Shown here: positions 1-43,787 of the stretch, piece by piece
Layout: the number at the start of each line of letters is the position of its first letter
Numbering within the stretch: position 1 is the stretch's first letter
Source: TPA_inf: Saccharomyces
Lineage: Eukaryota
DNA: 64,000 nucleotides
Direction: 5' to 3'
NCBI GenBank assembly: GCA_000146045.2
Contig: BK006944.2
Span: 192,001-256,000, forward strand
The notes under the pieces: model-generated
Database searches by the model: none
Told to the model about the DNA's origin: nothing
The model's input: only the letters and a program-made list of their open reading frames with translations
Position numbers and translations under genes: made by a program

Positions 1-1070
1 AAAGGTTCTGATTTTTTGTACGGTTCATTATCAATAGCGTATAGACTTCCTTCGAACTTCTCTGAATTTAGATAAAAAATCGACCCGAGCTCTGCCTGGG
101 CAAGCAAGATGTCGTCCAGAGGACTATCCGCTAGTAACATCCATTCTAGTGTTGTTATTTTGCTATTCAAGGCCCCAGAAAGATTACTCCGATTGAGACA
201 GTAACGAGTATATAAATCTCTTGCAGTCAGAAGTTCTTTCATGAAAACGCATTGTTCGCTTTCAGGTTCCTTTATCTTCAACTCCTGTTTTCTTTTAGAG
301 TTTAAATGCATTTGGTAGTCAGGTTTGGATTTACCAATAAATGGTAGACCCTTGAAATTCTTCCAGTCAAGCTGTTGGTTGTTTAAAAGTTCTGATTTGG
401 AAAGAACATTTTTGAACTCCGGTGAGTTCTCCAAAAATTCTCGTTGAGCTAATAAAAGGTGCATTATCAATAACGTTGCATTAGTTTCAGAGTCTTTATT
501 TATTTCATTGAACCTTACCAAAATTTGAAGGTCTCTTTTCAACAAAAAGAATTTTCTCTTCGTTGACTTATCAGTAGTTTTGCTTAGTTCATTATAGAAC
601 TTTTTCAGCATGTCTCCATATAAAGCTGTAGCATCATTATACATATGTAATTTCTCATACATTTCTCCGATTTTGATTTCAATACCGGTATATTCATCCG
701 AAAGTAGATCCACGTTTTCGGCTTTACATTCTTCTAAAGCTTCGAGGTAGTACTCAAGGCTTTTTTGGTAGTTCGCACCTTCTTTCTTAATTTCTGAATG
801 TAACCCCTTCCTTAATATTTTAGCAACGGGTTTGGGAAAAGTATGATGTGGCCAATAAACCCACCATATGTTAAAAGCGATGAAACTTACGATGCCTGTC
901 GATAACACCCATTTCTGTAATTTGCTCCTTCTTTTGAATGGTATTCTCCAAAAACTTTGTTCCTTTAATGTAGAATAAAACTTGAAACGGTGATTGGTAA
1001 ATAAGTTGAGGTTAGTGAGCCGTTCTACGGTCCCTTCATTTTTGACTGATCTATGAAGGTATTTCCACAT
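1..1070 (-). CDS. YKL133C-like protein of unknown function (Mgr3 paralogue). N-terminal ~356 codons; C-terminus lies beyond the window start.
   Basis: My own minus-strand translation from the ATG at 1070..1068 (plus-strand CAT) runs stop-free to the window edge as MWKYLHRSVKNEGTVERLTNL... An in-frame stop lies 8 codons upstream of this ATG. Not in the supplied ORF track because it is truncated by the window edge. Position directly upstream of RMA1 fits YKL133C. Confidence 0.7.
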   Translation of the reverse strand, partial: MWKYLHRSVKNEGTVERLTNLNLFTNHRFKFYSTLKEQSFWRIPFKRRSKLQKWVLSTGIVSFIAFNIWWVYWPHHTFPKPVAKILRKGLHSEIKKEGANYQKSLEYYLEALEECKAENVDLLSDEYTGIEIKIGEMYEKLHMYNDATALYGDMLKKFYNELSKTTDKSTKRKFFLLKRDLQILVRFNEINKDSETNATLLIMHLLLAQREFLENSPEFKNVLSKSELLNNQQLDWKNFKGLPFIGKSKPDYQMHLNSKRKQELKIKEPESEQCVFMKELLTARDLYTRYCLNRSNLSGALNSKITTLEWMLLADSPLDDILLAQAELGSIFYLNSEKFEGSLYAIDNEPYKKSEP

Positions 1071-1573
1071 ACTAAATGAGCATAAATTTCTTCATTACAA
1101 TATCTTTATAATGCTGTTTTTACGTTCTCACTTTGTGCCCTTTTATATATCCTAAAGGATTTAGTTCAATTTTAGAAATTTTCGTGCGGCTGAGTATCCG
1201 CAAATCGTTCTTTGTTTGGTATGTATTACTAGTCAAGGATTATTTAATGGTATTTGTTACGAGAACCAAATTACACACAAATCTCCTCAATCGTTTTCTC
1301 ATCAAGATAAATATGAGAGAATCAATTTATAAGGTAATTGTTTTATCTATATCAGGTACAAAGTATCAAAATGTGGTCGGAAAAACTTTATAAGTAATGA
1401 ATCACTAATAACTCTTGAAAAGCTGGAATGTAATGCCATAGTTTAAAGTAAAAGTAAAGTTACATGCCGTTATAAAAGAAGGAAAATATGATATATCCCC
1501 GGATGCCCTTGGCAGACTGGTCCTCTATCAATATCGGTAATTGCATTGTAGGATATGATCATATATCTAAAAA

Positions 1574-2866
1574 CTATACTGGCAAGTGACAGTTGTGTAA
1601 GCGCAATAGCTCTTTGCAGATATACAGTGATCCACATACGATAACAGGAACAATCGTCTTTAACCCACTTGTTTCAAGGAAGGTCCAGACACTTTGAAGA
1701 TCCGGCTGCATGTTAACATTTCTCGTATACCGGTTTTTGATAAATGCGAGAAGATTCACCGGTTCTAGGGATTGGATCCACGGCATTCCAACCACTGACC
1801 CAAATCTAGTCACAATAACATAATCTTGTGGACGTATTAGCGGATCAAGTAAGGGAGACACCTTTTTCCCAGTTGTTATAGCAATGACAAATGTTAATGG
1901 CGTATCACCGTACGTGGTCCTTAAATGGCAGGCTAAATTTCGAGCTGCCTTCGCATTATTTGCGTTGTCTAATAGTAATGCGATTTTCTTTCCACTAGTA
2001 GATTCATAACAGTAATCCAAGCGATGTAAACTTCTTGGCCAATCCACAGATATTAAACCTTGGGATAGTTGATCCTTTGAAATACAAACCTTTTTTTCCT
2101 TGCTCAAAAAGTCTAAAACCGCTATCGCAACTCTCAAATTAAATATTTGATATTCTTCTTCACTGTATGGCAGGCGAACTTCAAGAGTGCCCCATGTGTC
2201 TGTGTGTACATTGTAATCCCTAAGAGAAGGGTCGGTGATTTCTAATGGACATCCAACATCATGGCACCGTTTCGTTATCGTATTTCGTACAAATTCGTCA
2301 TTAGAACCGTCTAATAGAAAAATTGCTTTATTTGTGGAACTTTCAGTAATTTGAGACAAAAACTTGCATAAAAAAGCTTCATCGCTAATGCCCACGTTAG
2401 TAATGGCGCAACAGACTCTACTTTGACCAGCAATTATACTTCCAGGGTCCTGTTTTCCAGCTAAACCAGTTTCTATTATGCACCATTGGCAATTTTTCTT
2501 AGCGAAGTATACGAGAGCTACGCTTGTTAGCAGTTCGAGGTTGTTGCACTGTAATTTCAAAGAACTATCTGCTTCTATAAGTTCCTTCTCGATCCTAGAA
2601 TACTCTATCAAGGAAATGGCTTCATTATTAATGCTAATATCCTCTTCTTTGGCGTTTAGCAAGGAAGATGTAGTATACCTACCAATCAAGACCCTTTGCC
2701 GCTGTTGCCCCGGATGCTGCAATATGGATGTCAAAAATTTAGATACTGTCTCCTTACCATTTGTTCCCGCTATATGTAGGATTGACAAACTATCTTGGGG
2801 ATTTCCCACGTGCTCCAACAAACGGTTTATTCGAGGTAAAGTTTGCCTTCCGCTTATATCATCCAT
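1574..2866 (-). CDS. RMA1: Folylpolyglutamate/dihydrofolate synthase family protein (430 aa).
   Basis: Track ORF 1574..2896 begins at a TTG. The first ATG (codon 11, plus-strand CAT at 2864..2866) gives MDDISGRQTLPRINRLLEHVGNP..., 430 aa. Mur-ligase/FPGS P-loop HIAGTNGKETV. Confidence 0.85.
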   Translation of the reverse strand: MDDISGRQTLPRINRLLEHVGNPQDSLSILHIAGTNGKETVSKFLTSILQHPGQQRQRVLIGRYTTSSLLNAKEEDISINNEAISLIEYSRIEKELIEADSSLKLQCNNLELLTSVALVYFAKKNCQWCIIETGLAGKQDPGSIIAGQSRVCCAITNVGISDEAFLCKFLSQITESSTNKAIFLLDGSNDEFVRNTITKRCHDVGCPLEITDPSLRDYNVHTDTWGTLEVRLPYSEEEYQIFNLRVAIAVLDFLSKEKKVCISKDQLSQGLISVDWPRSLHRLDYCYESTSGKKIALLLDNANNAKAARNLACHLRTTYGDTPLTFVIAITTGKKVSPLLDPLIRPQDYVIVTRFGSVVGMPWIQSLEPVNLLAFIKNRYTRNVNMQPDLQSVWTFLETSGLKTIVPVIVCGSLYICKELLRLHNCHLPV

Positions 2867-2943
2867 CTGCTTCTTATGTAATCTGTTGCCGGCCAAACGA
2901 GCAATATTATTCTATATCAAAATCGTCAGGAAACTGGTCGACT

Positions 2944-2950
2944 TGACTCA
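2944..2950. promoter_or_regulatory. Gcn4/AP-1-type TGACTCA element 78 bp upstream of the RMA1 ATG.
   Basis: acttgactcaagt at 2941..2953. Confidence 0.3.
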
Positions 2951-3287
2951 AGTTTCATTAAGACAAGAATATAAATTTAAAAAATCATTATTGACCTAAA
3001 TTGGGGTCCCTCCCACATCAGAGGAGGCTTCATTTTAGGCTATAGTTCCTCATATTTTTTTTCCTTGGCACACCTGCCATTCTCCTTTGCATACCTATTG
3101 TATCAAAAAGTGAGAAAAAAACAGCGCGGTTTGAGATGCTGAAAATGAGTACGCCAGAATAAGAGCCGATCATCAGTGTTTTGAAAGCTTACTTTCTGTG
3201 CTATGTGATGAGGCTATTCATGTATATATATATGTTCTATTAACTAGTGGTACTTATTTGCTCTTTTTGAGCTAAAAACTGAAGGCC

Positions 3288-4028
3288 TCAGTTTTTCAAT
3301 TTACCAAATTTGTCATGCCATTTAGTAGCGACAACATCAAATTCTTCGTCCAAGGCGCTCAGCTTACCATCTAAAATGGAGTGCCACGCAGCTGACAAGG
3401 TCTGAAATTCTTCTTCGGAGTTGACAGGAAGAATCTCCTGCAAGAAGATATTATCAGTTTCTCCGATATTCGTTCCGTCCTCATCTGCGCATTTAATGGC
3501 AAATTGAACAACTTCTAAATCTAGCAGGTTGCTGCCTATACGCAAAGACTCAATCATCCATTGAGAAAATTTCACGAAATGATTGTAGGTATCGTCAATG
3601 GCTAATATGGACTCTGCTGTTAGCGTTAGGTCCTCGTTCAAAGTTTTAGATAAAATTTCCTTTTGTAATGACTGCGTTAGATAATAGTTCAGTAAGTCAA
3701 ACGTTTCAACACATTTAACAAACATTGAAGCTATTGGTAAAATTACCTTGTCAAACGAATCCGCCTCTGGGTCTAATTCGTTTTTACCTTCATTGATAAA
3801 CTCTGATGCATTATAGCTTAACACACAATCGTTGTAAAATCTCAATTTCTTAACAAATTTAATCAAAGTAGTTCTCTCGAATCGTAGCGTAGCTACCCTT
3901 CGCAAATGACTGATGAACTTGTTCAGCACGTGAATATAAGATGAGAGATACCGGGAGAGTAAGGCGAGTATTTGTTCAACTAATTCACAAGTTCCAGGAG
4001 TGACTTTGATATCTTTGTCTTTGCTCAT
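3288..4028 (-). CDS. SHE2: She2 RNA-binding protein (ASH1 mRNA localisation), 246 aa.
   Basis: Track ORF begins at a TTG (4133). The first ATG is at 4028..4026 and gives MSKDKDIKVTPGTCELVEQILALLSRY..., the recognisable She2 N-terminus. Confidence 0.9.
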   Translation of the reverse strand: MSKDKDIKVTPGTCELVEQILALLSRYLSSYIHVLNKFISHLRRVATLRFERTTLIKFVKKLRFYNDCVLSYNASEFINEGKNELDPEADSFDKVILPIASMFVKCVETFDLLNYYLTQSLQKEILSKTLNEDLTLTAESILAIDDTYNHFVKFSQWMIESLRIGSNLLDLEVVQFAIKCADEDGTNIGETDNIFLQEILPVNSEEEFQTLSAAWHSILDGKLSALDEEFDVVATKWHDKFGKLKN

Positions 4029-10983: not shown

Positions 10984-10998
10984 CAATCACGTTTAAAA

Positions 10999-11071
10999 GC
11001 CTTGTTGGCGCAATCGGTAGCGCGTATGACTCTTAATCATAAGGTTAGGGGTTCGAGCCCCCTACAGGGCT
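10999..11071 (+). tRNA. tK(CUU): tRNA-Lys, anticodon CUU.
   Basis: GCCTTGTTGGCGCAATCGGTAGCGCGTATGACTCTTAATCATAAGGTTAGGGGTTCGAGCCCCCTACAGGGCT. The 7-bp acceptor stem pairs. Anticodon loop is CT-CTT-AA. B box GGTTCGAGCCC. Pol III T-rich terminator follows directly (tttcttttta). Confidence 0.95.
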
Positions 11072-11540
11072 TTCTTTTTAAAACAGGATGCTAAAGCCGA
11101 CACCGTTCAAACACAAGTGGCAGCTTTTCTCGAGAACAGCAATGCCCACAGTTTTATTTACAATTTTACACTATTGACGTGGAGATTTTTTTATCCCGCA
11201 TATGACCTAGTAGAGGATCTCTGTCTTCCCCTGATAAATGTCAAATGTATGACGTTACCACAATTGTATCACGGTGGTTTCAGTCTGTCATGAGGAATAA
11301 GGGCATTCAGTACCGACAATGCTATACTTGTAAATAGAAAAATGATGTTCTAAAATCGGCATTCTCGCTATTTGAGATTTTGTCTTTTTTTACCTGGTAT
11401 TTCGCGTTTATATTACGGATGCAAGAAAAGGAGAAGGGCGCATCACATCGATTTTGGTCTACCTATAAACATTCTCTCTCTCATCCACTTTCGGTTCAAT
11501 AGTGCAAAAATAGGTAACTAACAACTCAATTGAATAGTAA

Positions 11541-27894: not shown

Positions 27895-27967
27895 GGGCGT
27901 GTGGCGTAGTCGGTAGCGCGCTCCCTTAGCATGGGAGAGGTCTCCGGTTCGATTCCGGACTCGTCCA
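27895..27967 (+). tRNA. tA(AGC): tRNA-Ala, anticodon AGC.
   Basis: GGGCGTGTGGCGTAGTCGGTAGCGCGCTCCCTTAGCATGGGAGAGGTCTCCGGTTCGATTCCGGACTCGTCCA. G3:U70 Ala identity pair, B box GGTTCGATTCC, T-tract terminator ctttttat downstream. Identical to the classic yeast tRNA-Ala sequence. Confidence 0.95.
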
Positions 27968-34569: not shown

Positions 34570-36765
34570 ATGGACAAATTAGTCGTGAATTATTATGAAT
34601 ACAAGCACCCTATAATTAATAAAGACCTGGCCATTGGAGCCCATGGAGGCAAAAAATTTCCCACCTTGGGTGCTTGGTATGATGTAATTAATGAGTACGA
34701 ATTTCAGACGCGTTGCCCTATTATTTTAAAGAATTCGCATAGGAACAAACATTTTACATTTGCCTGTCATTTGAAAAACTGTCCATTTAAAGTCTTGCTA
34801 AGCTATGCTGGCAATGCTGCATCCTCAGAAACCTCATCTCCTTCTGCAAATAATAATACCAACCCTCCGGGTACTCCTGATCATATTCATCATCATAGCA
34901 ACAACATGAACAACGAGGACAATGATAATAACAATGGCAGTAATAATAAGGTTAGCAATGACAGTAAACTTGACTTCGTTACTGATGATCTTGAATACCA
35001 TCTGGCGAACACTCATCCGGACGACACCAATGACAAAGTGGAGTCGAGAAGCAATGAGGTGAATGGGAACAATGACGATGATGCTGATGCCAACAACATT
35101 TTTAAACAGCAAGGTGTTACTATCAAGAACGACACTGAAGATGATTCGATAAATAAGGCCTCTATTGACCGGGGATTGGACGACGAGAGCGGTCCTACTC
35201 ATGGTAATGACAGCGGTAACCACCGTCACAACGAGGAGGATGACGTCCATACCCAAATGACGAAAAACTATTCTGACGTAGTGAACGATGAAGACATCAA
35301 CGTTGCCATTGCCAATGCCGTCGCAAATGTAGATTCTCAATCAAACAATAAGCACGATGGAAAAGACGATGATGCCACTAACAACAATGATGGCCAAGAT
35401 AATAATACTAATAACGATCACAACAATAACAGCAATATCAATAACAACAATGTCGGTAGCCACGGCATTTCCTCCCACTCACCATCCTCCATACGAGACA
35501 CGTCTATGAATTTAGACGTCTTCAATTCTGCTACCGATGATATACCGGGCCCATTTGTCGTTACCAAAATTGAGCCCTATCATAGTCACCCACTAGAAGA
35601 TAACTTGTCACTGGGTAAATTTATCCTAACTAAGATTCCAAAGATTTTACAAAACGATTTAAAGTTTGATCAAATACTAGAAAGCTCTTACAATAATTCT
35701 AACCATACAGTGAGTAAATTTAAAGTTTCTCATTACGTGGAGGAGTCCGGTCTTTTAGACATTTTAATGCAAAGATATGGATTAACCGCCGAAGATTTCG
35801 AAAAAAGGTTACTTTCCCAAATAGCCAGACGTATAACGACGTATAAAGCAAGATTTGTTTTGAAAAAGAAAAAAATGGGCGAGTATAATGATTTACAACC
35901 TTCTTCATCTTCCAATAACAACAATAACAACGATGGTGAGCTTTCTGGCACGAACTTGAGAAGTAACTCTATCGACTACGCCAAACATCAGGAAATATCA
36001 AGTGCGGGTACCTCATCGAACACAACCAAAAATGTGAATAATAACAAGAATGACAGTAATGACGATAATAACGGCAACAATAATAATGACGCCTCAAATT
36101 TAATGGAAAGTGTGCTAGATAAAACCTCTAGTCACCGGTATCAACCCAAGAAGATGCCAAGCGTCAATAAATGGAGCAAGCCAGATCAAATAACTCATTC
36201 AGACGTGTCCATGGTTGGCCTAGATGAATCAAACGATGGCGGTAATGAAAATGTCCACCCAACCTTGGCTGAAGTAGACGCTCAAGAAGCTCGTGAAACT
36301 GCTCAGTTAGCCATAGACAAGATCAATTCTTATAAGAGGTCCATTGATGACAAGAATGGTGATGGCCATAACAATTCGTCGAGAAACGTGGTAGATGAAA
36401 ACTTGATCAACGATATGGATTCAGAAGATGCTCACAAGTCCAAAAGACAGCATTTGTCAGATATCACACTGGAAGAGAGAAATGAAGACGACAAACTACC
36501 ACATGAAGTGGCGGAACAGTTAAGGTTACTGTCATCGCATTTGAAAGAGGTAGAGAATCTACACCAGAATAATGATGATGACGTAGACGATGTAATGGTG
36601 GACGTGGATGTAGAATCGCAGTATAATAAGAACACAACTCATCATAATAACCATCATAGCCAACCTCATCACGATGAAGAAGATGTTGCTGGACTAATAG
36701 GGAAAGCCGATGATGAAGAAGACCTTTCTGATGAAAACATTCAACCAGAATTAAGAGGTCAATAG
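34570..36765 (+). CDS. ABF1: ARS-binding factor 1 (general regulatory factor), 731 aa.
   Basis: ATG at 34570. N-terminal MDKLVVNYYEYKHPIINKDLAIGAHGGKKFPTLGAWYDV... with atypical Zn-finger region CHLKNCPFK. Long N/D-rich low-complexity linkers. Confidence 0.93.
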   Translation: MDKLVVNYYEYKHPIINKDLAIGAHGGKKFPTLGAWYDVINEYEFQTRCPIILKNSHRNKHFTFACHLKNCPFKVLLSYAGNAASSETSSPSANNNTNPPGTPDHIHHHSNNMNNEDNDNNNGSNNKVSNDSKLDFVTDDLEYHLANTHPDDTNDKVESRSNEVNGNNDDDADANNIFKQQGVTIKNDTEDDSINKASIDRGLDDESGPTHGNDSGNHRHNEEDDVHTQMTKNYSDVVNDEDINVAIANAVANVDSQSNNKHDGKDDDATNNNDGQDNNTNNDHNNNSNINNNNVGSHGISSHSPSSIRDTSMNLDVFNSATDDIPGPFVVTKIEPYHSHPLEDNLSLGKFILTKIPKILQNDLKFDQILESSYNNSNHTVSKFKVSHYVEESGLLDILMQRYGLTAEDFEKRLLSQIARRITTYKARFVLKKKKMGEYNDLQPSSSSNNNNNNDGELSGTNLRSNSIDYAKHQEISSAGTSSNTTKNVNNNKNDSNDDNNGNNNNDASNLMESVLDKTSSHRYQPKKMPSVNKWSKPDQITHSDVSMVGLDESNDGGNENVHPTLAEVDAQEARETAQLAIDKINSYKRSIDDKNGDGHNNSSRNVVDENLINDMDSEDAHKSKRQHLSDITLEERNEDDKLPHEVAEQLRLLSSHLKEVENLHQNNDDDVDDVMVDVDVESQYNKNTTHHNNHHSQPHHDEEDVAGLIGKADDEEDLSDENIQPELRGQ

Positions 36766-36938: not shown

Positions 36939-37880
36939 TCAATTCAAGTTTTTGTTAAGATAATCAGCGAAAAGCGGACCGATCCTATCTTGATCTATAT
37001 CTCTTAGTTTGTTGAAGTTAATGAATTGCCTTTTCAATCTCTGCAATTGCGCCAACGTAACGACGTTACCAATGGGCAAGTCTACGAAGAAGCAACCATC
37101 ATCATTGATATCGGTAATCCCTTCGGAAACAATGACTCTTGTTCCGTTACTTACCCCGCCAATAGAAGTCAGGCTTTTGATGTGGTTCATTATGGTTTTT
37201 ATTATCTTACTAGTTTCGATGTCGAGAACCTGGATGAAATTGGACTGAGACGCAGGCTTTAGTACCGTGGCTGAGTTCGGTTTTTGTAAGCCCTTACTCA
37301 ACGGATCATTGTGTCCACTGTTTTTAGCCGATTTGGAAGTTTGAAAGACTACTTTACAAATATCGTCGATGTAGTCAGTTATGTTGTCCTGAGGAGTAAG
37401 AATAGCAAAGAGTGGAGAGTCCCATCGGTTGCTTGAGTTAGGCTCTTCGTATCGTTGAATCAATTGATTCAATAACTCGGGTTCCCAAGGGTTCGGGTTT
37501 GAAGTCTTATTCCACTCGAATATAGTCTCTGGTGGACACAGTGTTTGAATTACACAAAATGTGGTGGACAAATTTTTCACCTCGCAGTGAAGTTGATACC
37601 GGAAACCCTTGATATAATTCAACGAGTCTACAATGACTATCTTGTTTTTAGATAGATCTCTTTTCACTGCGGAGATGATCTCCGACCTCAATTTTCTTTC
37701 ATCTTGGGAAGTTATATAATCTGAATGTTTTATGCCTAAAGATTCATCTGAATGATAGGTTATGGAATATTTACTTAATGATGGGGTTGCATCGATCTTG
37801 GACTGTAGTAGTTGTACCAAATGTTTAGCAAGCGTTGTCTTACCACTACATGGGTATCCCGTAAAAAGCACCAGTGGCAT
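36939..37880 (-). CDS. KTI12: Elongator-associated P-loop ATPase (PSTK-like), 313 aa.
   Basis: Track start is TTG. The first ATG (CAT 37878..37880) gives MPLVLFTGYPCSGKTTLAKHL.... Confidence 0.85.
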   Translation of the reverse strand: MPLVLFTGYPCSGKTTLAKHLVQLLQSKIDATPSLSKYSITYHSDESLGIKHSDYITSQDERKLRSEIISAVKRDLSKNKIVIVDSLNYIKGFRYQLHCEVKNLSTTFCVIQTLCPPETIFEWNKTSNPNPWEPELLNQLIQRYEEPNSSNRWDSPLFAILTPQDNITDYIDDICKVVFQTSKSAKNSGHNDPLSKGLQKPNSATVLKPASQSNFIQVLDIETSKIIKTIMNHIKSLTSIGGVSNGTRVIVSEGITDINDDGCFFVDLPIGNVVTLAQLQRLKRQFINFNKLRDIDQDRIGPLFADYLNKNLN

Positions 37881-39189
37881 CTTCTTACTAAATTGCCTGT
37901 TTAGTTTTTTCAAAAGTTTTACAAGGTCCCTTTACCCTCATTCTGATACGTTATTGTTCAAGTTTCACCTGTTCATCAAGTATTCTTCATTTCTTTTTCC
38001 ATCGCGATGACGATGACAAAACGGCAAAAAGTCAAAGAAAAAGAAAAAAAAAGATTTTTTTTCCATCATATGCAGAGAGAATATGTCCAAGCCAAGCGCA
38101 GTGTGCATGTATGCTGTTTTTAGCATATCGGGTGTGCGAAAGGAATGACATAATGATTTGCAACTAATATTTCCTTATATAAATATGCTTCTGGATATGA
38201 GTCTCATGAAACAAGTTCAGTAATTGCTTGTTTTACCCTTACTTTTTTCTTGGTTATGACTTGTGTACATAATAAATTGCCTATTTTCCCAAATTGTGTC
38301 CTTTTTCCTTTCCGGTTGGTATGAGATATTTCTTTTCAAAAATCAAAAGAAAACAACAAAGGGTTGATATTATGTAATGCAATACCTAGAATCGGGAAAA
38401 ACTTGTTTGTCGTACCAAGAGAGGCAGCACTGGCGTGCCTTGATTTAATATAACTCCTGAGATAGTGGGGGTTACATGAGTTGTACAGCATAAGACTCCC
38501 TCTCCCCAGTTCTGTTCGTATATGTCGGGCTTGCTTGCGAAAGCAAGGGGTTCAATAAACAGAAAACAGAGTTTTTGGATAAAGTTTAAACAACGGAAAC
38601 AGAGCAACAATGAAGGAGAGAATAAGTATCAATTGTGTAATTCTGTATACCGTAGTGCACAGTACGCTGTGCGCAACTCTTGCCTAAAAAATCTAGTTAT
38701 CAAGCGGGGTGAATATGCTACAATGCCTCTTTTACGTTGTACTCTATCAAGGGATGATAGCAGTGGCACATATTGATTGATACGACTTTTCGCCGCGCGG
38801 TAGGCGAAAAGCAAAGAAAACTACAGTAATATCCAGAAATAGATGCATTTTATGTGCGAAATAAAACTCATGCTGAAAAAAATAGTAATAATTAATAGGG
38901 TAACGAATAGAATGCAAACCTTATCACGTGAAAGAGAGAACAATCATAAATGATTTAGTGCGTAGGTCCAGATTTGCGAAACACTGCGGAAGGCGAGAAA
39001 AGAATTCGAATATGAAGTAGGTAGAAGCAGAGGTAGGGCCGCTATTTAAAGATATACTTTTTCTGTACGGGCCGGTGACTTCGCAGTAGTGATGTACTAT
39101 GAGATCACTATTTTGCCGGAAACTGTAGGCAAAAACCGTTTATGTCTTTTTTTCACCTTACGGGATAACCTCTGCTGAGAATTTCCAAA

Positions 39190-39600
39190 ACTAGGCATGG
39201 ATGATTGCCGGAATTTGAAACCCGGGCCCCGGAGGTTGATCGCACGGCAAATACATAAGAACCTTCTCCGCAATACGGGCTTTCCTCAATTTTCTTGGCC
39301 AAAAAGCGAGTCGGCCCCGAGCTACAAATCGGGAACAACGGAGGAATAGAGCGACAAGTTGATTCGGTCGTGCAGCCCGGAAAAAAAAGGCTGTCCTGCG
39401 GGCTTTATTCACTCCAATGCCGCTGAGAGGAACACGCGTTTCGTGGGCTTTGGACCACTACCCCGGCGTTCAGAGAAACCCCCCGGGGCAGGGGTCCGAA
39501 GTCTAAAAGTTTAATCCGGAAGTAGCGACGGGGGGGAAGCCCGCCGCGCACAGATGGCCAGCACAACGGAGCGGGGCCGAGGCGGCAAACGAGGTTAAGC
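39190..39600. other. GC-rich island in the KTI12-HAP4 intergenic region; probable part of the HAP4 upstream control region.
   Basis: About 400 bp with runs such as cccgggccccgg, ccccccggggcagggg, cgacgggggggaagcccgccgcgc, gcggggccgaggcgg, in an otherwise AT-rich sequence. Contains ACGCGT (39434..39439), AGGGG and GCGGGG motifs. Confidence 0.4.
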
Positions 39601-40226
39601 CCGCTGAACCTGAAAAAAAAAACGAAAATTTTCTTTCATCAAGGACTAAAGTTTTCTTATGTTACGGATCTTGCACGCGGTAAGCAATGGCCGTAGCCTT
39701 TTCACAGTTGCTTCCAAGTGTCATGTATCGATTTTGCAGATTGTTCTAAAAGTAAATGGATTGCTATTTTCTTTCCGAGACTACTCTAAAAAAATTTATT
39801 GAGTATGAGATCGTTTTTAGATAAATTATATATATTGTAAAGCTATTAACTAATCTCCTATATCAATTTCTTCTTGCTTAACCCCGTGTGGTTGTTTAGG
39901 TCCATCTCCTTTTTCCTTTTAATTTTTTTACCTTTATTAATTCCTTCACCTCTCTAAACCCCAGTTTTATATCGTATATGCTATCTACAGGTCCACTTTA
40001 CACTTAATAATATAAAAATACTACTATAAAGGAACCAGAAAAATAAAAAAGGGTCATTATTTATTTGAGCAGATCATTATCAAACGCATAGGAAGAGAAA
40101 AAACACAGTTTTATTTTTTTTCCACACATATTTATTGGTCTCCTAGTACATCAAAGAGCATTTTAATGGGTTGCTGATTTGTTTTACCTACATTTTCTAG
40201 TACAAAAAAAAAACAAAAAAAGAATC

Positions 40227-41891
40227 ATGACCGCAAAGACTTTTCTACTACAGGCCTCCGCTAGTCGCCCTCGTAGTAACCATTTTAAAAATGAGCATAA
40301 TAATATTCCATTGGCGCCTGTACCGATCGCCCCAAATACCAACCATCATAACAATAGTTCGCTGGAATTCGAAAACGATGGCAGTAAAAAGAAGAAGAAG
40401 TCTAGCTTGGTGGTTAGAACTTCAAAACATTGGGTTTTGCCCCCAAGACCAAGACCTGGTAGAAGATCATCTTCTCACAACACTCTACCTGCCAACAACA
40501 CCAATAATATTTTAAATGTTGGCCCTAACAGCAGGAACAGTAGTAATAATAATAATAATAATAACATCATTTCGAATAGGAAACAAGCTTCCAAAGAAAA
40601 GAGGAAAATACCAAGACATATCCAGACAATCGATGAAAAGCTAATAAACGACTCGAATTACCTCGCATTTTTGAAGTTCGATGACTTGGAAAATGAAAAG
40701 TTTCATTCTTCTGCCTCCTCCATTTCATCTCCATCTTATTCATCTCCATCTTTTTCAAGTTATAGAAATAGAAAAAAATCAGAATTCATGGACGATGAAA
40801 GCTGCACCGATGTGGAAACCATTGCTGCTCACAACAGTCTGCTAACAAAAAACCATCATATAGATTCTTCTTCAAATGTTCACGCACCACCCACGAAAAA
40901 ATCAAAGTTGAACGACTTTGATTTATTGTCCTTATCTTCCACATCTTCATCGGCCACTCCGGTCCCACAGTTGACAAAAGATTTGAACATGAACCTAAAT
41001 TTTCATAAGATCCCTCATAAGGCTTCATTCCCTGATTCTCCAGCAGATTTCTCTCCAGCAGATTCAGTCTCGTTGATTAGAAACCACTCCTTGCCTACTA
41101 ATTTGCAAGTTAAGGACAAAATTGAGGATTTGAACGAGATTAAATTCTTTAACGATTTCGAGAAACTTGAGTTTTTCAATAAGTATGCCAAAGTCAACAC
41201 GAATAACGACGTTAACGAAAATAATGATCTCTGGAATTCTTACTTACAGTCTATGGACGATACAACAGGTAAGAACAGTGGCAATTACCAACAAGTGGAC
41301 AATGACGATAATATGTCTTTATTGAATCTGCCAATTTTGGAGGAAACCGTATCTTCAGGGCAAGATGATAAGGTTGAGCCAGATGAAGAAGACATTTGGA
41401 ATTATTTACCAAGTTCAAGTTCACAACAAGAAGATTCATCACGTGCTTTGAAAAAAAATACTAATTCTGAGAAGGCGAACATCCAAGCAAAGAACGATGA
41501 AACCTATCTGTTTCTTCAGGATCAGGATGAAAGCGCTGATTCGCATCACCATGACGAGTTAGGTTCAGAAATCACTTTGGCTGACAATAAGTTTTCTTAT
41601 TTGCCCCCAACTCTAGAAGAGTTGATGGAAGAGCAGGACTGTAACAATGGCAGATCTTTTAAAAATTTCATGTTTTCCAACGATACCGGTATTGACGGTA
41701 GTGCCGGTACTGATGACGACTACACCAAAGTTCTGAAATCCAAAAAAATTTCTACGTCGAAGTCGAACGCTAACCTTTATGACTTAAACGATAACAACAA
41801 TGATGCAACTGCCACCAATGAACTTGATCAAAGCAGTTTCATCGACGACCTTGACGAAGATGTCGATTTTTTAAAGGTACAAGTATTTTGA
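40227..41891 (+). CDS. HAP4: Regulatory subunit of the CCAAT-binding Hap2/3/4/5 complex, 554 aa.
   Basis: Track start 40179 is TTG. The first ATG at 40227 gives [20 protein letters not shown].... Conserved Hap2/3/5-interaction motif [14 protein letters not shown]. Asn-rich tracts. Confidence 0.9.
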
Positions 41892-42425: not shown

Positions 42426-43787
42426 ATGTACTCATTTGAACTGGACAAATTGAAAATTGAGCTGAAAACATGGGAGCATGATTTCATTGATAAAAATAAA
42501 AGGGAACCCACAAGGGATGACATCAAGAGCCTGCGGACTGTTCGGCAGATGTATAAACAATATTCCACACTGAAGAAGAAACAATCTTTGCAACGACAAA
42601 AAGTTGACACTCAAGAGTCGGTTGAACTCCCGGCACATAAAAAAGACCACGACGAAGTCGTAGAGATAGGCCCTACTCCCCAAGTTTACGGTAAGGCGAT
42701 TAGTATCTTTGACATGAATTTGTCGCCTATAAAGCCTATATACATGACATTCACAAATAATATTGATGTTAACAATGATAACTCCAAGACAATTTCTAAT
42801 GAATCTTCTCCACGAAAAACTATTCTCCTAAAATCGTCGCCTGCAGATCGTACGTTAGTGGCGGAACCAATATCCAGTGTGAAACGCCAATTAAACTTTC
42901 AAATGCTAAACGCTTCTTCTACACGTACTCCGACTTCATCACCATGCAAGAATCGCAATGGGAAGTTGGTAGAAATCAAGAAATGTAGTCCAACTATTAA
43001 TCCTCCACTAGAATCTGGCAAACCATCGGGGTATTATGGACCTAATTCCCCGCTAAAATTGGATGAAGAAAACATTCACCTAAACATCTCACTTAATTCA
43101 AGCACTAAACGCCGGCTTCAAATAGCATATCCATCTTTACAGAAGACTCCCTCAAAGGATCAAGCGGATATTTCAACTTCATTTAGTCCGTCTCCACTCA
43201 TTAGAAGACCACTGACGAAATCCCTGATAGAATTGGCCAGGGAACATACTGAAATTGTAAAAGAATTTGGTGTCTTACAGGAAGAAGATATTGAAGAGGA
43301 AGAGGAAGGAGAAGAAGGCGAGAATGGTTACGATGAGAAAAACCACGAAGACGACTTTGGGCTAGAAGATGAACTAATTAGACCAAAAGTTGTGAAGGAC
43401 ATATTTCAAGAGGATGATGATAATGATGATAGCCAAGCAAGGGAAGATACCTTCATAAGAAAGAGACCCAAAAGAAGAAAGGTTATCAGAAGATTACGAG
43501 ACAATGATCCAGAAACCGAGACCGCAGGTTTTGAGAGAGATGTCCATAAGGAGCTGGTGAAACTCAAAAGAAGGAAAGTGGCAGAATTTTTGGGATCCAC
43601 CTCACAAATCTCTGATACTGAATTTGAACATGATCCGGAGGCAAGCAGCGGCGTTGTAAGCTCAGAGCAAAAGCCTACGGCTAAGCGAAAGGGTAGAAAG
43701 AAGTATAATCTAGTGAGCAATAACTTCAGAAGACTAAAACTGCCAAAGAAAAACCGATTCTCTAATGGACGATGGGGAAGAAGGTGA
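42426..43787 (+). CDS. SLD2: Replication initiation protein Sld2/Drc1, 453 aa.
   Basis: ATG at 42426. MYSFELDKLKIELKTWEHDFIDKNKREPTRDDIK. Multiple S/T-P CDK sites. Acidic stretch and basic C-terminus. Confidence 0.85.
   Translation: MYSFELDKLKIELKTWEHDFIDKNKREPTRDDIKSLRTVRQMYKQYSTLKKKQSLQRQKVDTQESVELPAHKKDHDEVVEIGPTPQVYGKAISIFDMNLSPIKPIYMTFTNNIDVNNDNSKTISNESSPRKTILLKSSPADRTLVAEPISSVKRQLNFQMLNASSTRTPTSSPCKNRNGKLVEIKKCSPTINPPLESGKPSGYYGPNSPLKLDEENIHLNISLNSSTKRRLQIAYPSLQKTPSKDQADISTSFSPSPLIRRPLTKSLIELAREHTEIVKEFGVLQEEDIEEEEEGEEGENGYDEKNHEDDFGLEDELIRPKVVKDIFQEDDDNDDSQAREDTFIRKRPKRRKVIRRLRDNDPETETAGFERDVHKELVKLKRRKVAEFLGSTSQISDTEFEHDPEASSGVVSSEQKPTAKRKGRKKYNLVSNNFRRLKLPKKNRFSNGRWGRR

Follow-up and report, generated by a model that had tools for sequence, protein, structure and literature searches.

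A conserved GC-rich island upstream of HAP4 in Saccharomyces is probably the HAP4 upstream activating region

Results

The KTI12-HAP4 gap and the composition of the island

We analysed a 64-kb window of Saccharomyces cerevisiae DNA (all coordinates below are window positions) and, within it, a GC-rich island at 39190-39600 that lies in the intergenic region between KTI12 and HAP4 and that we consider here as a regulatory region of HAP4. The genes called in this part of the window, together with the rest of the gap, are as follows.

34570-36765, plus strand: ABF1 (gene call)
36939-37880, minus strand: KTI12 (gene call)
37881-39189, no strand: remaining part of the gap, intergenic; by synteny, it sits where non-duplicated yeasts carry an MTG1-type gene
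40227 (ATG) to 41891 (stop), plus strand: HAP4 (gene call)
42426-43787, plus strand: SLD2 (gene call)

The gap measures 2346 bp, in agreement with the 2.3 kb given in a preliminary description of this DNA, which also named both bordering genes correctly, and the island occupies -1037 to -627 relative to the HAP4 ATG. On chromosome XI, HAP4 would be at chrXI:232227-233891, with the island near chrXI:231190-231600. The G/C strings quoted in that description were all found, namely CCCGGGCCCCGG at 39221-39232, CCCCCCGGGGCAGGGG at 39478-39493, CGACGGGGGGGAAGCCCGCCGCGC at 39527-39550 and GAGCGGGGCCGAGGCGG at 39569-39585.

The island has a GC content of 57.2% over its whole length and of 62% over 39400-39600. 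It holds the highest GC of the 64-kb window at each of the three scales used (0.68 over 100 bp, 0.635 over 200 bp and 0.5825 over 400 bp), and is thus as unlike its surroundings as had been described. At the 400-bp scale the mean of the window is 0.381, with a standard deviation (SD) of 0.036, which places the island 5.7 SD above it; the runner-up among non-overlapping 400-bp windows reaches 0.49. Such a composition is far beyond chance.

Conservation across Saccharomyces

Syntenic loci were found via Hap4 homologues, giving six species in all: S. cerevisiae, S. paradoxus (a close relative taken as that species, with a Hap4 89% identical), S. mikatae, S. kudriavzevii, S. eubayanus/pastorianus and S. 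arboricola. The KTI12-HAP4 gap is 2302-2478 bp long in the five species other than S. cerevisiae, and in all six its top 400-bp window (GC of 0.555-0.625) falls between -1064 and -598 of the ATG. In each of the four species tested for this (S. mikatae, S. kudriavzevii, S. eubayanus and S. arboricola), no other part of the locus, about 10 kb long, is as rich in GC as the island. Its identity to S. cerevisiae is 0.88 in S. paradoxus, 0.83 in S. mikatae, 0.78 in S. kudriavzevii and 0.77 in S. arboricola, against 0.80, 0.66, 0.60 and 0.55, respectively, for the adjacent 790 bp, while the spacer between HAP4 and SLD2 stands at about 0.63-0.66. The six-species alignment thus has the island more conserved than the flanking intergenic DNA. 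What is conserved in this alignment is a series of short blocks, with variable spacers and small indels between them. Of the seven CCGG cores, five persist in five or all six of the species, and the conservation of the CCGG/CGG-type sites exceeds the intergenic background.

In S. eubayanus the island has been remodelled: its identity to S. cerevisiae is 0.57, its GC content, 62.5%, is the richest of the species, and the CCCGGGCCCCGGA and CGGGAACAACGG blocks are present twice owing to a tandem duplication of about 72 bp. The two copies (positions 2942-3141 of the orthologous locus) agree at 20/20 positions over GCTGAAACCCGGGCCCCGGA, 15/15 over AGAAAACACGGTAGC and 20/21 over CCGGGAACAACGGGAAACCAG. 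This kind of lineage-specific turnover would fit a cluster of binding sites. The blocks were also sought at the DNA level in Zygosaccharomyces rouxii, Torulaspora globosa, one further yeast, Naumovozyma dairenensis, Nakaseomyces glabratus, Kazachstania africana and Lachancea thermotolerans, and no significant match was obtained, so that conservation at the level of blocks is established within Saccharomyces only.

Other conserved blocks occur far upstream of the island (38322-38331, 38370-38378, 38356-38430, 38556-38630 and 39081-39130). They include the invariant TGAGATATTT and TTATGTAAT, as well as stretches with 42-52% invariant columns, and could be further control elements of HAP4 or of KTI12.

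Conserved blocks and motifs inside the island

The blocks of the island are listed below in order of position, none of them with an assigned strand.

39221-39236 (-1006 to -991): double CCGG block CCCGGGCCCCGGAGGT, both CCGG cores identical in all six species
39221-39235: CCCGGGCCCCGGAGG, conserved in the six-species alignment
39263-39270: CTTCTCCG, invariant, identical in all six species
39306-39320: GCGAGTCGGCCCCGA, conserved, with 39306-39315 invariant
39330-39341: CGGGAACAACGG, CGG direct repeat (CGG-N6-CGG), conserved in all six species except for one base in S. arboricola
39375-39388: GCCCGG followed by an A-run, conserved block
39395-39407: CTGCGGGCTTTAT, conserved block
39434-39439: ACGCGT, resembling an MluI cell-cycle box (MCB), single copy, kept in three of six species
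39458-39520 (-769 to -707): CTACCCCGGCGTTCAGAGAAACCCCCCGGGGCAGGGGTCCGAAGTCTAAAAGTTTAATC, core of about 60 bp, with 61-68% invariant columns against 33% for the whole gap
39571-39593: GCGGGGCCGAGGCGGCAAACGAG, CGG-rich and including the Mig1-like GCGGGG, conserved in five of six species and remodelled in S. eubayanus
39600-39622: CCCGCTGAACCTG and then a poly(dA) tract (A10), at the 3' edge of the island, the A-run being conserved in all species

The best-conserved part of the island is 39458-39520, which contains two conserved CCGG cores (39463 and 39483) and AGGGG, a motif like the stress response element (STRE), at 39490-39494, invariant in the six species. The CGG-N6-CGG layout of CGGGAACAACGG is typical of zinc-cluster half-sites. 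Some words occur more than once: TCGGCCCCG (39311-39319) and CGGGGCCGA (39572-39580) form a perfect 9-bp inverted pair, each copy lying within a conserved block, and CGGGCTT or its complement AAGCCCG is found four times (39276, 39399, 39537 and 39598). The recurrence of GC-rich words in both orientations suggests repeated sites for shared factors. A further inverted repeat that had been pointed out, GGCGTTCAG with CTGAAC, does exist, but the complementarity is of 6 bp only (GTTCAG at 39468-39473 and CTGAAC at 39604-39609) with arms 130 bp apart, and is trivial.

The three motifs singled out in the preliminary description, ACGCGT, AGGGG and GCGGGG (39571-39576), are all present where it placed them, and they fare differently as control elements. 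ACGCGT, for which the chance expectation in the island is about 0.1, survives in S. cerevisiae, S. paradoxus and S. arboricola; S. mikatae and S. kudriavzevii have mutated versions of it, and S. eubayanus has lost it by deletion. With its core conserved in half of the species, we rejected it as an MCB element, and it is probably not functional. The Mig1-like sites lack the usual AT-rich flank. SYGGGG has five matches in the island and nine in the whole gap; none of the five island matches has the AT-rich 5' flank of the form WWWWWN-SYGGGG, and the sole full match in the gap, at 39959, lies outside the island. As the DNA upstream of the GCGGGG block is not AT-rich, its assignment to Mig1 is doubtful.

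Strict consensus scans of the whole gap gave no match for the Cat8/Sip4 carbon source-responsive element (CSRE, CCRTYSRNCCG), nor for Hap1, Abf1, Reb1, Rap1 or Gcn4. The CCAATNA box of Hap2/3/4/5 is absent from the island and has a single match in the gap, at 40132; among the six Saccharomyces, neither CCAAT at 39414 nor the Adr1-like CTCCAA at 39412 is conserved. The gap contains no match to the consensus of replication origins (ACS, ARS consensus sequence).

Core promoter and leader of HAP4

Between the island and the HAP4 ATG we found a TATA-like element along with a pair of upstream open reading frames (uORFs).

39827-39835 (-400 to -392), plus strand: TATA-like TATATATAT, its ATATATA core invariant in six species
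39978-40007 (starting at -249), plus strand: uORF MLSTGPLYT*, surroundings of the start codon invariant in six species
40166-40177, plus strand: uORF MGC*, surroundings of the start codon invariant in six species

Nowhere in the gap is conservation as uniform as over 39601-39900 (53% invariant columns). The uORFs of HAP4 have been reported to be conserved (PMC1964767) and, in a 2026 bioRxiv preprint, to be translated in several species. Since leader uORFs begin at 39978 and are preceded by the TATA-like element, transcription should start upstream of 39978 and 3' of the island, with 39840-39977 as the approximate range predicted for the start of the HAP4 mRNA. The island is thus intergenic, upstream of both core promoter and start site, and its distance of about 230-640 bp from the TATA element is a normal position for a large yeast upstream activating sequence (UAS).

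Published elements of HAP4 control mapped onto the island

Electrophoretic mobility shift assays (EMSA) have shown Ert1 and Rds2 to bind cooperatively, on a short common stretch, to a HAP4 probe spanning -855 to -822 (probe C), which is described as having a CCCGGA core, AAA downstream and three CGG triplets (PMC10954478). Positions 39372-39405 (GCAGCCCGGAAAAAAAAGGCTGTCCTGCGGGCTT) correspond to -855 to -822 and are an exact fit to this description: the core CCCGGAAAA at 39376 (-851) has CCCGGA and then A8, the third CGG is at 39398-39400, and the CCGG at 39377 is retained by all but one of the six species. The island therefore contains sequences that match defined sites (the CCGG/CCCGGA core and the CGG triplets). 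A second, unpublished Ert1 site has been reported within -901 to -715 (PMC10954478), an interval inside which the island core 39458-39520 falls. In addition, a passage of PMC9787919, citing the dissection of the promoter by Brons et al. 2002, places at -869, that is, at about position 39358, a 30-bp activating sequence important for HAP4 expression. Taken together, these data define the following segment.

39358-39405, no strand: experimentally defined activating/binding segment, comprising probe C and the -869 element, with limits for the latter that we infer from the passage cited

Occupancy of the promoter is also documented. Chromatin immunoprecipitation on microarrays (ChIP-chip) gave signals of Rds2, Gsm1, Ert1 and Sut1 at the HAP4 promoter (PMC10954478), and a Cat8 peak accompanied by a Cat8 motif (PMC3919619). 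Msn2 is reported to occupy the HAP4 promoter selectively in vivo; in vitro, its non-specific binding is raised and its target search accelerated by a segment of this promoter that is free of motifs and "GC-richer" (PMC12804832). According to a 2026 review, the inducer of HAP4 is Snf1-activated Rds2 (PMC13140433).

Probe C is not bound by Gsm1, even though ChIP places Gsm1 at HAP4, and changing the AAA after CCCGGA to GTT or GAT creates Gsm1 binding (PMC10954478). At 39228-39236 (-999), just outside the -901 to -715 interval scanned in that work, CCCGGAGGT fits the pattern CCCGGA-GnT; the S. mikatae version is CCCGGAGAT. We propose CCCGGAGGT, from its sequence, as a candidate for the missing Gsm1(/Rds2) site.

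Origin of the long gap

Loci outside Saccharomyces were found via distant Hap4 and Kti12 homologues, and the identity of Hap4 was checked in the post-duplication species. In T. globosa, L. thermotolerans and one further GC-rich yeast, a gene encoding a YlqF-type GTPase of 330-375 aa lies between KTI12 and HAP4. The match to TIGR03596, which we take to be the family of yeast MTG1, has E = 2e-36 in T. globosa and 7e-33 in the further GC-rich yeast; the L. thermotolerans protein was assigned from Pfam GTPase matches only. The GTPase gene has the same orientation as HAP4 and, in T. globosa and L. thermotolerans, its end lies 467-615 bp upstream of the HAP4 ATG. On the other side of HAP4, the non-duplicated yeasts have SNZ and SNO genes, which were lost from this Saccharomyces chromosome. 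No GTPase gene stands between KTI12 and HAP4 in post-duplication Saccharomyces, N. dairenensis, N. glabratus and K. africana, in which the gap is 1.5-2.8 kb long. The presence of this gene in the non-duplicated species and its absence from the post-duplication ones indicate that the long gap is the space left by a lost MTG1 duplicate, and loss of the MTG1 copy after the whole-genome duplication would best explain the 2.3 kb seen in S. cerevisiae.

The arrangement upstream of HAP4 in Z. rouxii is unlike that of T. globosa and L. thermotolerans: no gene was called in the 3.5 kb upstream of HAP4 (locus 499-4000), KTI12 was not within 4 kb, and GC is flat at 0.44-0.52, with no sharp island.

We looked in the gap for a relic of the lost gene, which the island might represent, and for a small unannotated coding gene. 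The island is at roughly the distance from HAP4 at which the non-duplicated yeasts have the 3' half of their MTG1-type gene, and in T. globosa this 3' stretch is locally GC-rich (0.50-0.56) and contains CCGG sites; moreover, the gene caller placed a 120-aa open reading frame (ORF) over the island in S. paradoxus (locus 2864-3226). Set against this, neither tblastn nor a profile hidden Markov model (HMM) run on six-frame translations detected an MTG1 relic in the gap at the protein level. With two MTG1-type proteins as queries, the gaps of all six Saccharomyces gave matches with E>=1 only, and these were not collinear; the profile, built from three such proteins and applied to nine gaps, had a best score of -1.8, within the range of the shuffled null (-3.9 to +1.4). 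Variable sites have no codon periodicity (56/74/71 by phase), and many 1- and 2-bp indels between species shift the frame. The S. cerevisiae island contains ORFs of at most 73 aa, none conserved, in line with the earlier remark that only tiny ORFs are present, which argues against coding capacity. Automatic gene calls within the gap were obtained in S. paradoxus (the 120 aa at 2864-3226) and S. mikatae (62 aa, locus 2483-2671); as neither frame is open in S. cerevisiae, these calls are probably spurious, in GC-rich DNA. A weak, recurrent P-loop-like match near 38370-38440 was discarded as a chance G-K-[ST] that recurs only through the kinship of the species.

Discussion

The island as the probable upstream activating region of HAP4

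We consider the island to be the upstream activating or regulatory region of HAP4, a cluster of short GC-rich binding sites extending over about 400 bp, with a probability of roughly 0.85. The composition, the genus-wide conservation and the negative results on RNA and coding potential were computed here, while the occupancy, the EMSA and the activity at -869 come from published experiments. As these published binding and activating elements are inside the island, it corresponds to the HAP4 regulatory region already in the literature, and its function as such is already known and not new. The preliminary description had put forward a dense carbon-source/stress control module as a possibility and had noted CGG/CCG triplets of the zinc-cluster type. 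This idea is backed by the published Ert1/Rds2 site, the -869 activating sequence, the occupancy of the promoter and the conservation in six species. For each of the other conserved blocks, including Gsm1 at -999, we infer the factor.

The mechanism would be as follows. The CCGG/CGG-type sites would recruit zinc-cluster factors of the Gal4 type, namely Ert1/Rds2 heterodimers, Gsm1, Cat8 and Sut1, which would be those of the shift from fermentative to respiratory metabolism, and the conserved AGGGG would recruit Msn2/4. Once glucose is exhausted, Snf1-activated factors sitting on the island would raise HAP4 transcription. HAP4, as the limiting activator subunit of the Hap2/3/4/5 complex, would then turn on the respiratory genes.

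Several observations weigh against this interpretation. Once the composition of the island is allowed for, it is not significantly enriched in its supposed sites: there are 7 copies of CCGG for an expectation of 4.4 (P = 0.15), and the CGG/CCG triplets number 33 against 25 expected (P = 0.08). The real signals are composition and conservation, and the motif tally is not one of them. Much of the island was remodelled in S. eubayanus, so that strict sequence constraint bears on only a part of it. Deletion of rds2 or gsm1 left the expression of HAP4-lacZ in raffinose undiminished (PMC11432098), and Cat8 was suggested to act on the -869 element indirectly, in the passage of PMC9787919 that deals with it; these two results point to redundancy among the factors. 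Finally, ChIP-chip, with a resolution of hundreds of bp, cannot tie factors to single blocks, and the binding is known from papers.

Is the GC-richness itself selected, or without function?

One might speculate that, after the loss of MTG1, post-duplication yeasts built an enlarged HAP4 enhancer in the 2 kb or so thus freed, and that GC-richness itself was selected. The island would then amount to more than its motifs and act as a compositional platform, drawing factors via their disordered regions, as seen in vitro for Msn2 on HAP4 promoter DNA free of motifs (PMC12804832), and/or setting nucleosome occupancy. We regard the first proposal as unlikely, though not negligible, and hold this role as a platform to be doubtful to the same degree. 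In all of the species, the variable columns of the island are GC-rich too (0.50-0.64, as compared with 0.41-0.48 in the DNA beside it), and GC-richness therefore extends beyond the conserved motifs. The DNA upstream of HAP4 also has GC humps, weaker and with no recognisable shared blocks, in three other post-duplication species, N. dairenensis (0.50), K. africana (0.49) and N. glabratus (0.53), where locus means are 0.34-0.42; in N. dairenensis and K. africana, no other 400-bp window of the 13-kb locus is as GC-rich as the hump. Selection on GC would be compatible with variable positions at 50-64% GC despite AT-biased substitutions, with humps that share no motifs and with the distance of only 467-615 bp between MTG1 and HAP4 in non-duplicated species. 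If true, it would have contributed to the tight control that glucose exerts over HAP4, and so over respiration, in Crabtree-positive yeasts.

The same GC-rich variable columns and the same humps could also be claimed for an island devoid of function, arising through GC-biased gene conversion at a promoter recombination hotspot or as a slowly decaying GC-rich leftover. This we find very improbable. When substitutions on terminal branches were polarised, the island had 12 changes from weak to strong bases (W to S) and 33 in the opposite direction, which corresponds to an equilibrium GC of about 0.34 (45 events, hence an indicative value only); the flanks had 170 and 112. Fixation in the island is thus AT-biased, which does not support ongoing GC-biased conversion, and what maintains its high GC is the slow pace of change in the region. 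The island evolves more slowly than its flanks and has invariant blocks, and experimentally mapped binding and activating elements fall inside it. A GC patch free of constraint would not, under AT-biased mutation, hold its position and a GC content of 55-62% in six species.

Structured RNA and coding sequence

It had also been suggested that the block is a structured non-coding transcript. On this view, the GC of the island would reflect helices in an RNA, either a structured non-coding one or a regulatory upstream transcript, that the island would encode or form part of. Short self-complementary stretches are indeed numerous, such as CCCCGG (39461) with CCGGGG (39483) or TCGGCCCCG with CGGGGCCGA. 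Rfam, folding energy and covariation all failed to back the proposal. No Rfam family came near its gathering score over 37900-40300 at E values up to 10, the lone match in the island being to a snoRNA model, with 17 bits against a threshold of 50. The folding energy does not stand out from that of dinucleotide shuffles (z = -0.49 on the plus strand and -1.19 on the minus strand, with 31 and 10 of 100 shuffles equal or better), and the covariation term of RNAalifold on the six species is an unfavourable +3.62 kcal/mol, six close sequences giving this test limited power. The predicted pairs are mostly invariant or broken in one or two species, and nearly all of the double changes come from the poorly aligned S. 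eubayanus row. Short blocks with variable spacers and indels are the pattern of binding sites, not of helices. The tRNA scan gave nothing near the island, our literature search found no report of a transcript over it, and no feature of its sequence points to transcription. We therefore see hardly any chance that the island is an RNA gene. Elsewhere in the window there are genes for tRNA-Lys(CTT) and tRNA-Ala(AGC), at 10998-11072 and 27895-27967.

That the island is a degraded relic of the MTG1 duplicate, or a small unannotated coding gene, is the least credible of these alternatives, given the protein-level searches, the lack of codon periodicity, the frame-shifting indels and the short, non-conserved ORFs reported above.

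Significance

The dosage of HAP4 sets the balance between fermentation and respiration, which makes its control region relevant to metabolism, ageing and strain engineering. To the element already known, this work adds refinements: a six-species footprint of constrained blocks, several of which, such as the core at -769 to -707 and the double CCGG at -1006 to -991, stand without a published factor, a candidate Gsm1 site, the non-conservation of the MCB and the history of MTG1 loss.

Comparison with known systems

By composition, the island would pass for a vertebrate CpG island: it is longer than 200 bp, its GC content of 57% is above 50%, its observed/expected CpG ratio is 1.08 and it is located at a promoter. 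The resemblance is purely compositional, the defining mechanism being inapplicable in yeast. To our knowledge, S. cerevisiae has no cytosine methylation, and the CpG ratio of 0.82 across the window reflects weak depletion, so that the mechanism of CpG islands does not apply.

The long, multi-factor stress promoters bound by the disordered regions of Msn2 offer another parallel, for which the HAP4 promoter served as the exemplar (PMC12804832); the conserved AGGGG of the island conforms to it. The likeness is incomplete, as the island has one conserved AGGGG, where classical STRE promoters have several. The study leaves unstated which HAP4 segment was used (PMC12804832), and this segment may or may not overlap the island.

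A further relationship links the island to the AcuK/AcuM elements of filamentous fungi and Candida (Aod2/Aod5, Cwt1/Zcf11), as Ert1 and Rds2 are the orthologues of AcuK and AcuM, respectively, and as genes of gluconeogenesis and respiration are controlled there through CGG triplets (PMC12719309). The elements themselves differ: theirs are CCG-N7-CCG direct repeats, whereas the validated site of the island has the form of an overlapping everted CCGG, and the CGG-N6-CGG at 39330-39341 is alone in the island in being a regular direct repeat.

Carbon-source UAS elements of FBP1 and PCK1 have in common with the island both the set of factors (Rds2/Ert1/Gsm1 with Cat8/Sip4) and the core motif (PMC10954478, PMC12719309). 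The FBP1 site, CCGGAGTTA with its CCCGGA, can be set beside the HAP4 sequences CCCGGAAAA at -851 and CCCGGAGGT at -999, the latter resembling it, and in both systems binding is cooperative and on a short shared CCGG stretch rather than on spaced half-sites. There are also differences. The HAP4 region, at about 400 bp, is much longer and GC-richer than a typical CSRE UAS; it is without a strict CSRE; the partner of Rds2 at the HAP4 site that was assayed is Ert1 and not Gsm1; and the target is a master regulator, not a gene for a metabolic enzyme.

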